Shown in pieces: positions 3,605 through 19,282 of a DNA stretch of 64,000 nt (positions within the stretch are counted from its first letter, which is position 1; each line of letters starts with the position of its first letter). The stretch comes from a virus, in the IMG/VR virus record IMGVR_UViG_3300042888_000160, positions 14,392 through 78,391 of that record. The stretch is one strand, 5' to 3'. Below the pieces are notes generated by a model. That model was not told where the DNA came from. It made no database searches and saw only the letters and a program-made list of their open reading frames with translations. The position numbers were made by a program, and so were the translations under genes.

Positions 3605-3973
3605 TTAATATGGTTTGTATGATTTTTCTTCTACAATCTCTGATCCATACTTAATGTTTATTTCTTTTTTGAGGGCTGCCCTCTTGTCATTTGTGAAGTA
3701 AACATCACGTGCTAGCTTGATAAATTCCTCATCAAATTCACCTAGACGCTCCTTCTCTCTGATGTTATCTTCTATATACCAAAGAACTAAATTTGTTCCA
3801 CATAACTCTGTGTAAAGTTTATCAATAAGGATCTCTGCAGGGAAGCTGTCTATCAATGAGCTCAGTTCTTTTTGAACATGCCCTAGTTTAACTGGATCTG
3901 TTATCTTTTCATTCTTAATAACCAGGATGCTGATCTTATCAGCCACTTCTCCTGTACTAACATCTATTAACAT
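3605..3973 (-). CDS. DUF6165-like helical protein
   Basis: VSTGEVADKISILVIK...LWYIEDNIREKE...FDEEFIKLARDVYFTNDKRAALKKEIN..YGSEIVEEKSY; pattern recognised from small proteins that often neighbour GT9 glycosyltransferases. Confidence 0.75.
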   Translation of the reverse strand: MLIDVSTGEVADKISILVIKNEKITDPVKLGHVQKELSSLIDSFPAEILIDKLYTELCGTNLVLWYIEDNIREKERLGEFDEEFIKLARDVYFTNDKRAALKKEINIKYGSEIVEEKSYKPY

Positions 3974-3978
3974 AGCTA

Positions 3979-4009
3979 TTGTATTTTTGTGTAAATATAT
4001 CTAACTTTG
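3979..4009 (+). promoter_or_regulatory. Bacteroidota sigma70-type promoter for the glycosyltransferase operon
   Basis: TTG (3979-3981) - 20 nt - TAACTTTG (4002-4009), 16 nt before ATG 4026; fits the TTG..TAnnTTTG consensus. Confidence 0.7.
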
Positions 4010-15335: not shown

Positions 15336-16283
15336 TTAACAATAAGTATACATAGATGTACCACCATAATATATATGATAGGTAAGACTTCCCCAATAGT
15401 TTCCATCAGTTCCTCTAGAACCACCAGGATATTGGATCTGAACTCTACCACTTCCACCAGATCCTGCATTCTGTGAATTGTTAGGTCGATTACCACAACC
15501 TCCACCACCTCCACCAGTTCCTCCAGCTTTGTTAGTAGCATTACAGTTACCACCACCACCAGCACCATCAGTTCTTGTAGGTGTTCCACCATTAGCATTA
15601 CCAGCCCAAGAGCATTGGTTATTCTCACCAGCTGATCCTCCTCCTCCACCACCTTCAGTAGTTTCGTTTACTTCAACATGAAATTCACCATCTCCACCCC
15701 AACCATTAGCATACTCACCATGAGATCCAGCTGATCCTCCTCCTCCTCCTCCACCTCCACGAACATTACCACCACCAGGTCCACCAGGATATCCATTACC
15801 CCAAGATGAACCACCATCTGACCAACGCATTCCTCCTCCACCAGCACCTCCACCTCCCCAACCTCCATTACCAGCAGACCAATCAGAACCACTTCCTCCA
15901 CCACCTCCTGCATAACACTCTTGGCCATTGAAAGCTGAATATCCACCATAGCTACCTTGAGCTCCTGGTTGTCCAGCTCCTCCACCTCCTACAGATACAG
16001 GATAAGTTTGATTCTTATATAAAGTCATGTAACCACTAGAAGAAGCACCTGCTCCTCCTCCCCCTCCTCCACCAAAGTTACCTCCTCCACCTCCACCACC
16101 ACCAGCTCTTACCATCCATGCTACACTAAAACCAAATGTGTAGCCATAGAATTCACTCATAGCATCTGGAGCAGTCTTACACGCTGTTCTACTTAATGAG
16201 CCTAATTGATAGTTACCATTTATTGGGGCTAACTCATTACGTATGATTGACATACTTAATTGACCTGAACTTGGGATTGTCAT
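15336..16283 (-). CDS. Glycine-rich protein, probable fibre tip or adhesin
   Basis: N-terminal MTIPSSGQLSMS.I..E...MSEFYG anchor-like motif and many GGGGG/AG runs. Confidence 0.75.
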   Translation of the reverse strand: MTIPSSGQLSMSIIRNELAPINGNYQLGSLSRTACKTAPDAMSEFYGYTFGFSVAWMVRAGGGGGGGGNFGGGGGGGAGASSSGYMTLYKNQTYPVSVGGGGAGQPGAQGSYGGYSAFNGQECYAGGGGGSGSDWSAGNGGWGGGGAGGGGMRWSDGGSSWGNGYPGGPGGGNVRGGGGGGGGSAGSHGEYANGWGGDGEFHVEVNETTEGGGGGGSAGENNQCSWAGNANGGTPTRTDGAGGGGNCNATNKAGGTGGGGGGCGNRPNNSQNAGSGGSGRVQIQYPGGSRGTDGNYWGSLTYHIYYGGTSMYTYC

Positions 16284-16285
16284 AA

Positions 16286-19282
16286 TTATCTACGTTTTAA
16301 TTCTTCGATTTGTTTCTGTTGCTCTTGAGCTACAGCTACCAACAAAGTTACTAATTTTGCGTAATTAACAGTGATATAATTTTCACCTGATAAAGATTCT
16401 CCTGTTTCTTTATTAACATCGAATGGAGCTAAACTTACAGTCTCAGGCATTATAGATCTTATTTGTTGTGCTGATAAACCAACTTGCATCTTATCATCTG
16501 TATATCCAAATTGTTTAGCTAACTCATTGGCTTGATAATAGAAAGCATCAAGTTTCATTACTTTATCAATAGCATTCTCAATAGGTCCAACACGATCTTT
16601 TAAACGATCATCAGAATAGAAAGCATACACTTCACCAGTAGCATAAACAGTACCAAATGTAGGATTACTGTTTGTATTAACATATTGGTTCATTGCAGAT
16701 GCATATACGTTAGATGTACCTGTTGGACCAGTTGGGCCTGTAGGTCCTGTAGGACCAGTACCACCATTAGCACCTGATGTACCAGCTGTTCTAGTTAAAC
16801 CACTAGAGCCTGAAGTACCAGAAGATCCAACAGCACCTGCTGCACCAGTAGCACCTGATGTTCCAGAGCTTCCAGAAGCACCAGTTTCACCTGATGATGC
16901 ACTTGTACCAGAAGATGCACTACTACCACTTGTACCACTAGATCCACTTGTGCCACTAGTCCCACTGCTACCACTAGTTCCACTAGTTCCACTAGCACCT
17001 GTATCACCAGATGTGCCTGATGAACCACTTGTACCAGCAGTAGCGTCTTGTCCTGAAGTTCCAGCTGTTGCATCCTGTCCTGACGTACCTGCTGTAGCAT
17101 TTACACCAGACGTTCCAGATGTTCCTGAAGGAGCATTGAATGTAGTCTGTGTGTATGAATAATTACTTACTCCTTCTGTATAGAATGTAGCATCTATTGA
17201 GCCAACACCTGGATGAGCTGCATAAATTTGACAATACAATCTATCTGTTGCATCTAATGTAGTTTGAGGTAAAAATAAATCAGTAAAGAATTCTTTTATG
17301 ATACCAGTAGATAATACTTCTGTATCAAGATTTGTAGTACCTAATAGAGTAGATGTTCCTCCTGTTGTATACTTATATAATTCAACATCAACTGCCAACG
17401 TTTCGTTAGTATCAATACTGATGTGTGTAACAAATGAAAATAATCCTGAAGGAATATTTGTAATGTTTGGAACTCCTGAATCAGTAGCAAACGTTGCAAT
17501 TAATTGTCTTGTAGCTGATGGAACAGCTACTGTTACTGATTGCTCAGCACCATTAACTGCACTAGGAGATAGTTCTTTATATGTAGGAGTACCAAATGCT
17601 GAGTCAGTATTATTTGATAAGTTCATATAATAAACTTGACCACCAGAGATACCTGATGCACCACTTGATCCTGAAGTACCAGCTGTAGCTGAAGTGCCTG
17701 AAGTGCCTGATGTACCAGAGGAACCAGACGTTCCTGCTGTTGCATCTATACCACTAGTACCACTCGAACCATCAGTTCCTGTTGTACCTGCTGTACCAGA
17801 ACTACCTGATGTGCCTGAGCTACCATCTGTTCCTGTAGTTCCTGATGTACCATTTGTTCCTGCTGTCCCTGAAGAGCCAGATGTTCCTGAACTTCCACTT
17901 GTACCTGCTGTTGCACTTGTACCTGAAGACCCATCTGTACCTGTGGTACCTGACGTGCCTGAAGATCCATCTGTTCCAGAAGAACCATTGGTTCCACTAG
18001 ATCCACTTGATGCTGACGTTCCATTAGAACCATCAGTTCCTGATGTTCCACTTTCTCCAGAACTAGCTGAAGATCCATTAGTACCATTGGTACCAGAACT
18101 TCCACTTGTTCCTGCAGTTCCACTTGATCCATCTGTACCTGATGTTGCATCACGTCCTGAAGTTCCAGCAGTAGCATCTCTACCAGATGTTCCTGATGTA
18201 CCCATTGTACCATCAGCTGCACTTGTTCCAGATGAACCATCTGTTCCAGATGTACCTGCAGTACCACTAGAGCCATCTGTACCTGCAGTAGCAGATGTAC
18301 CACTAGATCCTGAACTTGCTGATGTACCAGACGATCCATCTGTAGCACTAGTTCCTGAGGTTGCAGAAGTTCCATTAGAACCATCTGTACCTGAAGATCC
18401 ATCAGTAGCTGATGTACCAGAGCTTGCACTTGTACCACTTGTTGCTGATGTTCCATTAGTTCCAGCAGTTCCACTTGAACCACTAGTTCCAGACGATCCA
18501 TCACCACCAGCTGTTCCTTGTAAGTTTACAGCCCAAACATCATATGTTCCAGATCCTTCAACTTGACTAGGAAGATTAAATACTAATGTACCATTAACTG
18601 GATTGTAACTAATTACTTGAGCAACTTGATAGTTTTCATAATCATATGTTATAACAATTGATTGCCCTTCTGTATAAGATAGATTAACATCTACAATTAA
18701 TGTACCACCATCACCTAAAGTTAACTCACTTGTAGAAGATGTTCTATATCTATCTCCAGACTGACCTGAGCTTCCAGAAGAAGCAGAAGTTCCTGAGCTA
18801 CCTGAGCTTGCTGAAGTACCTGAAGTCGCACTTGTTCCTGAGGATCCAGAAGAACCTCTTGTACCATTACGTCCACTAGATCCACTTGTTCCACTAGAGC
18901 CAGAGGTACCTGAAGTACCATCTCTACCTGACGTTCCTGTGTTACCACTAGATCCACTACTTCCATCTGTTCCTGAACGACCACTTGATCCAGAAGTTCC
19001 AGCAGTTCCATTACGTCCACTAGTACCTGAAGTACCACGTGTACCAGCAATACCTCGCTCACCACTAGATCCAGAAGATCCAGAAGACCCACTAGTACCT
19101 GCTGTACCAGACGTACCTGTTCCACCTAGGGCTTGACAGACCTTCTGATCTAACTTCTGTATTACAGTTTGTAGATTATCATTAGTATTAATGCCACTAC
19201 ATACTAGATTAGCTCCTTCGTAAAATACGCATTGAGCATCTAATATAACAGGGCATTCGCCAGTTGAACAGATTACGTCCAT
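16286..19282 (-). CDS. Collagen-like Gly-Ser/Thr tail fibre with C-terminal intramolecular chaperone (peptidase S74-like)
   Basis: Three long (G-S/T-X)n blocks separated by globular domains; C-terminal YSDDRLKD...VGLSAQQI...VNYAKL...QEQQKQIEELK. Confidence 0.85.
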   Translation of the reverse strand: MDVICSTGECPVILDAQCVFYEGANLVCSGINTNDNLQTVIQKLDQKVCQALGGTGTSGTAGTSGSSGSSGSSGERGIAGTRGTSGTSGRNGTAGTSGSSGRSGTDGSSGSSGNTGTSGRDGTSGTSGSSGTSGSSGRNGTRGSSGSSGTSATSGTSASSGSSGTSASSGSSGQSGDRYRTSSTSELTLGDGGTLIVDVNLSYTEGQSIVITYDYENYQVAQVISYNPVNGTLVFNLPSQVEGSGTYDVWAVNLQGTAGGDGSSGTSGSSGTAGTNGTSATSGTSASSGTSATDGSSGTDGSNGTSATSGTSATDGSSGTSASSGSSGTSATAGTDGSSGTAGTSGTDGSSGTSAADGTMGTSGTSGRDATAGTSGRDATSGTDGSSGTAGTSGSSGTNGTNGSSASSGESGTSGTDGSNGTSASSGSSGTNGSSGTDGSSGTSGTTGTDGSSGTSATAGTSGSSGTSGSSGTAGTNGTSGTTGTDGSSGTSGSSGTAGTTGTDGSSGTSGIDATAGTSGSSGTSGTSGTSATAGTSGSSGASGISGGQVYYMNLSNNTDSAFGTPTYKELSPSAVNGAEQSVTVAVPSATRQLIATFATDSGVPNITNIPSGLFSFVTHISIDTNETLAVDVELYKYTTGGTSTLLGTTNLDTEVLSTGIIKEFFTDLFLPQTTLDATDRLYCQIYAAHPGVGSIDATFYTEGVSNYSYTQTTFNAPSGTSGTSGVNATAGTSGQDATAGTSGQDATAGTSGSSGTSGDTGASGTSGTSGSSGTSGTSGSSGTSGSSASSGTSASSGETGASGSSGTSGATGAAGAVGSSGTSGSSGLTRTAGTSGANGGTGPTGPTGPTGPTGTSNVYASAMNQYVNTNSNPTFGTVYATGEVYAFYSDDRLKDRVGPIENAIDKVMKLDAFYYQANELAKQFGYTDDKMQVGLSAQQIRSIMPETVSLAPFDVNKETGESLSGENYITVNYAKLVTLLVAVAQEQQKQIEELKRR
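16715..19125 (-). repeat. Degenerate 9-nt tandem repeats encoding GTS/GSS/GTA/GTD triplets (blocks ~16715-17130, ~17645-18510, ~18760-19125)
   Basis: Gly (occasionally Ala) at every third residue; antisense frame gives VPx repeats. Confidence 0.9.

Follow-up and report, generated by a model that had tools for sequence, protein, structure and literature searches.

What does a phage do with glycosyltransferases of its own? The question is raised by a 64,000-nucleotide stretch of viral DNA, called the window here (positions 14,392 to 78,391 of IMG/VR record IMGVR_UViG_3300042888_000160), in which an operon of five glycosyltransferase (GT) genes, P1 to P5, shares the genome with genes for collagen-like tail fibres. 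P5 is related to TibC and Aah, enzymes of Escherichia coli that attach sugars to proteins. The original prediction, made from this DNA alone, was that an initiating protein O-glycosyltransferase and a set of extending enzymes build a glycan coat on the fibres, capsid and tail of a crAss-like phage. The evidence below makes it probable that the operon serves to O-glycosylate, in the cytoplasm, the virion fibres of the phage itself, which are built from G-S/T-X triplets.

The operon, its TibC/Aah-family enzyme and the fibres

The operon (window 4026-10631) consists of five translationally coupled open reading frames (ORFs) on the plus strand, with overlaps of 35, 4, 4 and 11 nt, and codes for seven GT domains. 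The rest of the window, unlike the operon, is almost wholly on the minus strand. The operon genes, a divergent neighbour and the two collagen-like fibres of the window are:

4026-4976, + strand: P1, GT9-family GT-B glycosyltransferase, 316 amino acids (aa) (PF01075, E 4e-19)
4942-7563, + strand: P2, three-domain glycosyltransferase, 873 aa; GT4 (residues 1 to ~315), predicted phage-specific GT-A (316 to ~640), predicted second GT-A (640-873)
7560-8555, + strand: P3, 331 aa; predicted phage-specific GT-A (residues 1-229) and C-terminal beta-sandwich (230-311), from an AlphaFold model and structure comparison
8552-9565, + strand: P4, GT4-family GT-B glycosyltransferase, 337 aa (PF13692, E 8e-9; PF00534, E 7e-8; PHROG glycosyltransferase families 33732 and 2170)
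9555-10631, + strand: P5, putative Aah/TibC-family (BAHT) protein O-glycosyltransferase, 358 aa (TIGR04414, PDB 4RAP)
3605-3973, - strand: DUF6165 protein, 122 aa, divergent from the operon (PF19662, E 4e-6)
16286-19282, - strand: collagen-like fibre 1, 998 aa (Pfam Collagen, E 8e-55; Peptidase_S74, E 4e-8; PHROG tail-fibre families up to E 1e-57)
58948-60924, - strand: collagen-like fibre 2, 658 aa; Ser or Thr (S/T) at 0.64 of the X/Y positions of its triplets (PHROG tail-fibre families)

Profile and residue comparisons indicate that P5 is a genuine member of the Aah/TibC family, the label given to it in the original prediction. Its score for TIGR04414 was 235.7 bits, above the cut-off of 200, with an alignment to positions 41-370 of the 374 in the model; it matched the TibC structure 4RAP with E 6.5e-44, while its score against lipopolysaccharide (LPS) heptosyltransferase I was only 24 bits. 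Residues named in the TibC paper (PMC4358343) were mapped onto the P5 alignments. D97 of P5 corresponds to the catalytic base Asp110; the β-phosphate ligands Thr226 and Lys230 are kept as the T and K of an S-T-x-Q-x-K motif, and the sugar-contacting Trp305 as the Trp of an S-W-L-A-W motif. G96, D97, K213 and W274 (P5 numbering) are invariant in 17 phage sequences. C307, C310, C326 and C338 align with the iron-finger cysteines of TibC (Cys339, 342, 358 and 370), of which three are invariant among the phage homologues and one nearly so. At the position governing stereoselectivity P5 has Ser, like Aah.

All characterised members of the family O-glycosylate Ser of repetitive proteins in the cytoplasm (PMC4358343), and O-glycosylation of Ser/Thr as the chemistry of P5 is well supported by homology. 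With the TibC-TibA and Aah-AIDA-I systems of E. coli (TIGR04414; PDB 4RAP/4RB4; PMC4358343) P5 shares the GT-B core as well as the catalytic and iron-finger residues just named. Like TibC and Aah, it is predicted to be a soluble cytoplasmic protein and is encoded near a highly repetitive, Ser/Thr-rich protein. The candidate acceptor, however, is a G-S/T-X collagen-like fibre and not a beta-helix. No autotransporter adhesin was found in the window or at any phage TibC-like locus, whereas the plasmid reference has AIDA-I directly downstream. TibC and Aah add single heptoses; P5 is accompanied by six further GT domains, and its gene is viral.

The layout foreseen for the operon (a GT9 enzyme, GT4 domains, a paralogous pair of domains and an Aah/TibC-like enzyme) stands. 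The NCBIfam scores of P1 are weak and under the cut-off (heptosyltransferase II, 48.8 bits; Aah/TibC, 45.2 bits), and P1 lacks both the iron finger and the N-terminal barrel that TibC has. Its counterpart in one distant clade (L011-L015) lies beside a GT4-TibC gene, with 37% identity. The N-terminal GT4 domain of P2 was recognised at residues 165-268 (PF00534/PF13692) with borderline scores; in L006, L008, L016, L024 and L011-L015 it either immediately precedes the TibC-like domain or is fused to it.

P3 and the middle domain of P2 are paralogues (BLASTP E 5e-8; identity 22% over 172 aa). P3 had no match in Pfam, NCBIfam or PHROG. It has 252 representative homologues, and its AlphaFold model, made from a 54-sequence alignment, has a predicted local distance difference test (pLDDT) score of 95.6. 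Residues 1-229 of this model resemble WrtF, B4GALNT1, POMGnT1, glycogenin, TarP, the PBCV-1 capsid enzyme A64R and others (VIA Z 11.5-14.2), and D115 is invariant in the 54-sequence alignment, inside an E-x-D consensus. On the modelled structure, P3 and the middle domain of P2 have a GT-A glycosyltransferase fold and are predicted to be enzymes. In the protein atlas the P3 domain is restricted to viruses, where it is elsewhere fused to GT4, GT2, GT25-annotated and Aah/TibC domains.

The C-terminal domain of P2, described in the original prediction as GT25-like, is by its model (pLDDT 78) a GT-A domain similar to GnT-I, COLGALT1 and Mimivirus R655: Foldseek placed R655 at the top, with 9crz at E 7e-7, human COLGALT1 at TMq 0.58 and GnT-I comparable. 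P2 also has an invariant E-G-D motif. Residues 640-873 had no match to Pfam GT25 (PF01755) at E ≤ 1, and in the neighbouring atlas cluster PF01755 occurs in 17% of members. Because the Pfam family does not match, 'GT25-like' appears to hold as a resemblance of fold rather than as family membership.

No transmembrane segment was found in P1-P5. Among the loci compared, the window operon has the largest set of accessory GT domains, the phage-specific GT-A family included. The DUF6165 protein accompanies the cassette, with 80-82% identity in close relatives and about 50% in the L011-L015 clade, where its gene is placed between the TibC fusion and a collagen-like fibre. Its atlas clusters are all DUF6165, some additionally DUF4254. 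It is likely, from this association, to be an accessory of GT9/TibC-type enzymes.

Fibre 1, situated 5.66 kb from the end of P5, contains 199 Ser and 162 Thr. Its G-S/T-X array is broken by two globular inserts and followed by a C-terminal S74 intramolecular chaperone domain, which suggests that the fibre trimerises. There are 186 triplets, with S/T at 75% of X/Y positions, where only five Pro and no Lys occur. Since 24 of the 186 triplets have Ala at the Gly position, it is uncertain whether the window fibres form a triple helix. Both fibres are Pro-poor and Lys-free in their repeats, and a third collagen-like fibre is encoded upstream of the window in the same genome. Thus a Ser/Thr-dense fibre some 6 kb from the operon, and a second elsewhere in the window, are present as the original prediction described them (S/T 0.75 and 0.64). 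Domains homologous to the inserts of fibre 1 adjoin TibC-like genes in L006, L008, L009, L016 and L024.

Pairing of TibC-like genes with Ser/Thr-rich repeat proteins

Relatives of P5 are encoded on 15 viral contigs. Together with GenBank phages, one locus from the collagen sample described below and one whole-genome match, they make up 12 lineages with at most 61% mutual identity. An ORF was called collagen-like if it had at least 20 triplets. In 11 of the 12 lineages such an ORF lies 46 bp to 7.7 kb from the TibC-like gene, with S/T at 0.53-0.86 of its X/Y positions. The original prediction had suggested looking for enzyme and G-S/T-X fibre together across phage genomes, and the answer is strongly positive.

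The paired lineages include the complete genomes G007 and G010/L269, the 735-kb huge phage L271 and the cultured Microcystis phage Mel-JY01 (L270). In several of them the collagen-like ORF is immediately downstream of the TibC-like gene and in the same direction. G007 (64.8 kb) encodes a GT4-TibC fusion and has its only two collagen-like ORFs within 3 kb; no run of six or more Ser/Thr residues was found anywhere in this genome. As G007 has the enzyme and the fibres, G-S/T-X arrays rather than poly-Thr tracts appear to be the partner of the TibC-like enzyme.

In Mel-JY01 (PP395634.1) an open frame of 1016 aa on the plus strand (record positions 2-3049) contains 202 G-X-Y triplets with S/T 0.79. 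Next come a Ser-rich structural protein and, after that, a 1226-aa fusion with a TibC-like domain at its end. What is deposited at 2-3049 is instead an antisense 'hypothetical protein' (739-2298, minus strand) with a P-x-x-P pattern. Judged by its sequence, 2-3049 looks like a mis-annotated collagen-like fibre gene.

Across the lineages a GT4 domain is the core companion of the TibC-like domain. Outside the window clade the two are usually fused in proteins of 671-1246 aa, some of which also carry GT2 and methyltransferase domains; in the window clade P5 is a stand-alone, thumb-less TibC-like protein. GT9 and DUF6165 recur in one distant clade. Because GT4, GT2, methyltransferase and P3 domains are fused to TibC-like domains elsewhere, the extending enzymes probably act on the same product as the TibC-like domain, and the original idea of an initiating enzyme working with extending ones gains from the fusions in other phages.

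Chance pairing was estimated from control loci. In 80 random viral loci (685,590 bp, median GC 35.5%) there was no collagen-like ORF by the same criterion, and if the rate is set at its upper bound, about 0.075 for each neighbourhood of 17 kb, the probability of 11 pairings in 12 by chance is of the order of 1e-11. In a sample of 92 viral collagen-like ORFs, the S/T share ranged from 0 to 0.87 and reached 0.5 in only 15 (16%), so that all eleven TibC-adjacent ORFs would exceed 0.5 by chance with a probability of about 2e-9. Both figures treat the lineages as more independent than they are, since a single cassette may carry enzyme and fibre from genome to genome.

The search was also run from the fibres. 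A TibC-like gene was present within the short flanks of one of the 15 S/T-rich loci. Among the remaining S/T-rich loci, the sole complete genome, of 166 kb, encodes a TibC fusion and, 46 bp after it, a G-T-S fibre. None of the 77 S/T-poor collagen loci had a TibC-like gene, and none was found on six large S/T-poor contigs (about 800 kb). The insert domain of the fibre, used as a query, gave eight loci, too few to decide: three are short relatives that end at DUF6165, one has GT4-GT4-TibC genes 9 kb away, and one cluster has no TibC-like gene.

A profile of the phage TibC-like domains detected 40 loci in bacterial and archaeal genomes, of which 19 have a G-S/T-S repeat ORF, 14 of these within 1.7 kb. 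On gammaproteobacterial chromosomes (Arenicellales, Methylomicrobium and others; GC 0.44-0.67) the repeat ORFs encode small lipoproteins with a signal peptide, a lipobox Cys, a (GTS)n or (GSS)n run and an acidic tail, and they adjoin stand-alone TibC-like genes. These lipoprotein ORFs are:

L301, 11082-11702 and 12035-12511: (GTS)n/(GSS)n lipoproteins
L300, 8428-8817: (GTS)n/(GSS)n lipoprotein
L290, 11196-11906: (GTS)n/(GSS)n lipoprotein
L283, 11123-11551: (GTS)n/(GSS)n lipoprotein

As these chromosomes have no tail-fibre module, the pairing is not due to a shared hypervariable fibre region. From the sequences, lipoprotein and TibC-like gene look like an undescribed bacterial glycolipoprotein system.

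Proposed mechanism and alternative substrates

In the mechanism proposed, P5 would act first and, late in infection, transfer a sugar from a host-made nucleotide sugar to Ser/Thr hydroxyls of the (G-S/T-X)n arrays. The acceptors would be the two collagen-like fibres of the window, or three genome-wide. P1 (GT9), P2 (GT4 and two GT-A domains), P3 (GT-A) and P4 (GT4), six GT domains in all, might then extend and branch the first sugar into an oligosaccharide. The resulting glycan coat would stiffen or stabilise the almost Pro-free fibres and shield them. The donor must be host-made, since the complete relatives of the phage lack rfaE and gmhA, and from the residues of P5 it may be other than ADP-heptose; heptose as the transferred sugar is possible but not indicated.

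Parts of this scheme have precedents. Mycobacteriophages reportedly glycosylate their virions (Freeman et al. 2023), with glycosyltransferase genes near the structural genes and glycans on capsid and tail tube, as is said to have been shown experimentally. The glycosyltransferases of the window are likewise proposed to work in the cytoplasm of the host and to modify virion proteins of the phage that encodes them. The mycobacteriophages differ in that other enzyme families are involved, the acceptors are C-terminal tails of capsid and tail-tube proteins and the hosts are Actinobacteria, whereas the window system is predicted from its genes. To our knowledge, no BAHT member has been reported in mycobacteriophage virion glycosylation. 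In BclA of Bacillus anthracis and in vent-worm cuticle collagen, Thr of G-X-Thr collagen is O-glycosylated, and such glycans can stabilise the triple helix. The window fibres similarly consist of Pro-poor collagen-like repeats with Thr in X/Y; unlike those collagens, they are as rich in Ser as in Thr and have Ala for Gly in the triplets noted above, and the enzymes are unrelated.

Giant viruses (Mimivirus collagen and fibril enzymes, PBCV-1 A64R; review PMC9614988) encode host-independent glycosylation systems of several enzymes for virion surface fibres or capsid. The likeness to the window system (R655 as best structural match of the P2 C-terminus, A64R among the matches of P3) is at the level of fold only. 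Giant viruses infect eukaryotes, and Mimivirus collagen is modified on hydroxylysine, whereas the window repeats are Lys-free.

Several points weigh against fibre glycosylation by P5. No glycan has yet been seen on any virion of this group, and the proteins that the family is known to modify are beta-helical autotransporters and not G-X-Y arrays. TibC Arg286 touches the adenine of ADP-heptose, and mutating it cripples TibC (PMC4358343); P5, unlike TibC, has Val there, as does the rest of the window clade, most phage lineages have Thr, Val or Leu, and only L011/L012 and the bacterial Aah-like reference retain Arg. The beta-hairpin thumb, which joins TibC dimers into a dodecamer ring (PMC4358343), is deleted in P5 (an 11-column gap in the window clade) and retained in L011/L012. 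The ADP-heptose genes rfaE (domain II) and gmhA were not found in the genome of the window (G000) or in its complete relatives, and no pathway to a nucleotide sugar was seen in the latter.

The genomic pairing also has exceptions. The 636-kb huge phage L272 has no collagen-like ORF inside 10 kb of its TibC-like gene. Most sampled S/T-rich fibres are without a TibC-like gene in the available DNA, nearly all of it from contigs that are fragments, and a 166-kb contig (56% complete) with a related fibre domain has none either; S/T-rich fibres without a TibC-like enzyme probably exist. In the window clade the operon and the structural genes are on opposite strands, and 5.7 kb containing eight unrelated genes separate it from the fibre. 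Nor are the lineages wholly independent of each other, as enzyme and fibre may travel as a cassette, although co-transfer is what a functional unit predicts.

A first alternative is that the protein acceptors are mainly other than fibres, namely the poly-Thr or (ST)n tracts of the muzzle, head-associated and small proteins, or host (GTS)n-type lipoproteins. Tracts of up to 45 residues were found, as the original prediction had noted for structural genes, in the muzzle protein (poly-Thr at residue 1099 and a 34-residue T/(ST)n tract at residue 1590), in proteins of 273, 635 and 379 aa, and in three small ones encoded upstream of the window, which makes at least seven in this genome. The bacterial TibC-like genes beside (GTS)n lipoproteins mean that such a host acceptor could exist, and seven GT domains exceed the needs of one simple glycan. 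Nevertheless, poly-Thr tracts do not recur at other TibC-like loci, G007 manages with enzyme and fibres and no tract, and a phage fibre is adjacent in all lineages but one. The poly-Thr proteins of this genome moreover cluster round a conserved 338-aa protein outside the window. This alternative therefore appears unlikely. As no comparative evidence tied the muzzle tracts to the operon, these are only a possible extra acceptor. The coat foreseen in the original prediction is accordingly favoured on the fibres by the enzyme-fibre pairing; its extension to poly-Thr tracts of capsid and tail is not borne out by the comparison.

The island that holds the small proteins (G000 10157-13661, on L001 upstream of the window) encodes three of them, with T/(ST)n tails of 30-45 residues, a DUF5856 protein, the third fibre and the 338-aa protein (L001 11264-12280). 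The latter, a candidate glycosyltransferase, is flanked by the three poly-Thr proteins, has an invariant C-D-x-D motif and has 2670 homologues; no match to it was found in Pfam, none in the PDB by sequence or profile, and no profile-profile link to the P3 family. A tblastn search with the 379-aa protein gave no match.

A second alternative, about as improbable, is that the operon is a host-takeover cassette which remodels the host envelope (LPS core, O-chain or other surface glycans) against superinfection. P1 belongs to GT9, the family of the LPS-core heptosyltransferases, GT4 enzymes are common in polysaccharide synthesis, and the opposite orientation of the operon to the structural genes is moron-like. 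In the pelagimyophage host-recognition cluster, glycosyltransferase genes interleaved with tail-fibre and collagen-repeat genes have been assigned to modification of the host O-chain (PMC7029224). The absence of transmembrane segments in P1-P5 does not exclude a role in LPS synthesis, because LPS-core enzymes lack them as well. On the other side, P5 is above the cut-off for a protein-glycosylating family and barely resembles LPS heptosyltransferase I, and the fusion of GT4 and GT2 to the TibC-like domain indicates that the extenders work on the product of that domain. In the family scans of the window no Gtr-type, Wzy-type or flippase component turned up. Envelope remodelling, the customary interpretation of such genes and conceivable for P1 or P4 taken singly, also leaves unexplained why TibC-like genes pair with S/T-rich G-X-Y repeats both in phages and on bacterial chromosomes. 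Unlike the pelagimyophage account (PMC7029224), in which TibC-type enzymes were not singled out, the data here favour the fibres as substrate.

That the cassette sugars phage DNA, as in T4 glucosylation or 5-hydroxymethylcytosine (5hmC) glycan clusters, is very improbable: phage GT-A and GT-B enzymes akin to LPS and teichoic-acid enzymes do glycosylate 5hmC, heptose included (bioRxiv 10.1101/2023.12.21.572611), and a 2-oxoglutarate-Fe(II) (2OG-Fe(II)) oxygenase gene adjoins P5, but no thymidylate-synthase-type hydroxymethylase (PF00303) or C5 DNA methylase (PF00145) was found in G000 and four 98-100% complete TibC-carrying genomes, Tet_JBP (PF12851) was not found either (a weak negative, as this search matched in no control genome), and the oxygenase belongs with the prolyl-hydroxylase/PKHD enzymes rather than with TET/JBP and is not consistently kept alongside the operon.

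Fibre glycosylation by the operon thus remains the favoured reading, and a wider proposal can be put forward only tentatively. It is conceivable that a widespread, undescribed, mucin-like O-glycosylation takes place in the cytoplasm, in which iron-finger TibC-type enzymes start glycans on (G-S/T-S)n repeats, both in bacterial lipoproteins and in the fibres of crAss-like, T4-like, cyano- and huge phages, with some donor that is not ADP-heptose; the glycan would stand in for proline and hydroxyproline in keeping a proline-free, collagen-like fibre together. In the literature searched there was no description of a phage TibC-type enzyme or of glycosylated crAss-like virions. If fibre glycosylation is confirmed, virion glycosylation would be a common trait of abundant aquatic phages, crAss-like ones included, and no mycobacteriophage curiosity. 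It would bear on host recognition, on the mechanics of proline-free fibres, on resistance to proteases and grazing, and on the annotation of phage glycosyltransferases labelled 'LPS genes'. The substrate range of BAHT enzymes would widen from pathogen adhesins to a simple G-S/T-S repeat, which could serve as a genetically encodable glycosylation tag. As Mel-JY01 is in culture and has the same enzyme-fibre pairing, the question is directly testable.

The phage, its habitat and neighbouring genes

The window is 64 kb out of one viral contig of 78,391 bp with about 35% GC, a CheckV completeness of 67% and no terminal repeat; capsid, portal and terminase fall outside this contig. Three tail genes place the phage:

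46701-51764, - strand: crAss-type muzzle protein, 1687 aa (PF25731 crAss_MUZ, E 2e-39, 135.9 bits, above the Pfam cut-off)
53181-53903: ring protein 2 (CrAss_Ring_2, 58.1 bits, above the Pfam cut-off)
51715-52698: ring protein 1 (CrAss_Ring_1, 32.4 bits, above the Pfam cut-off)

Since all three Pfam models are exceeded, the phage is assigned by its protein matches to the crAss-like phages (Crassvirales-type tail), in agreement with the original prediction. Structural proteins of Cellulophaga phages phi4:1 and phi17:2, Leptolyngbya phage Lbo-JY46 and gut phage csAssE-Sib share 28-34% identity with the muzzle protein. Complete relatives are 112.9 kb and 119.1 kb long, terminal repeats being present in the larger, and keep the operon at 70-95% identity. 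A blastn search of the operon against GenBank phages gave no match.

The habitat of the phage is fresh water. Near-identical operon DNA is present in 20 lake and freshwater sequencing runs from 2016-2024, and no RNA run is among the listed runs that contain it. A marine habitat, suggested by composition and by the oxygenase and halogenase genes, was ruled out, as the carrier runs come from fresh water and lakes.

The closest bacterial-genome matches of the phage TibC-like profile (42-51% identity) lie on low-GC contigs binned as Bacteroidota, which are probably phage DNA. The sequence TAACTTTG (window 3995-4025), 16 nt before the start codon of P1, agrees with TAnnTTTG, the -7 promoter motif of Bacteroidota. 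A scan of the operon for promoters and terminators gave nothing exceeding shuffled expectation. The binning of the nearest P5 relatives and the motif before P1 hint at a Bacteroidota host, which is to be taken only as a lead.

Next to the operon lies the oxygenase gene:

10596-11228, - strand: 2OG-Fe(II) oxygenase, prolyl-hydroxylase/PKHD type (PF13640, E 6e-15; NCBIfam Fe2+-dependent dioxygenase)

It converges on P5 with a 36-nt overlap. It is present in L003 and L004 but is not next to the operon in the complete relative G006/L005 or in any distant lineage, and is not a core part of the glycosylation system. Between operon and fibre 1, a 517-aa homologue of flavin-dependent tryptophan halogenases is encoded at 13274-14827 (minus strand; PF04820, E 8e-100). 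L003 has it with 96% identity and L004 with 51%, and G006 lacks it at that place. Upstream of the window, at L001 4778-6089 (plus strand), a GT2 glycosyltransferase gene is followed by one for a Methyltransf_24 protein weakly similar to rhamnosyl O-methyltransferase, so that this genome has sugar-related genes beyond those of the operon.

A 4282-aa ORF (24150-36998, minus strand) has a counterpart in G006 with 48% identity across 2382 aa. Lying between the 1576-aa and cargo-like proteins, it is placed where a virion RNA polymerase or cargo protein of crAss type might be expected; PHROG scans gave no match for the 4282-, 1576- and 1304-aa proteins. The 722-aa protein at 43653-45821 (minus strand) has a weak match, below the cut-off, to a polyvalent-protein ADP-ribosyltransferase domain (PF18760, E 3e-6). 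An SbcD-like DNA repair exonuclease (53906-55132, minus strand; phrog_704, E 9e-58) is encoded amid the tail and structural block, where relatives have it with 84-85% identity. At the contig start (L001 1-3002, plus strand), a fragment of a class II ribonucleotide reductase gene is followed by one for a bacterial-type RecA (PF00154, E 2.5e-87).

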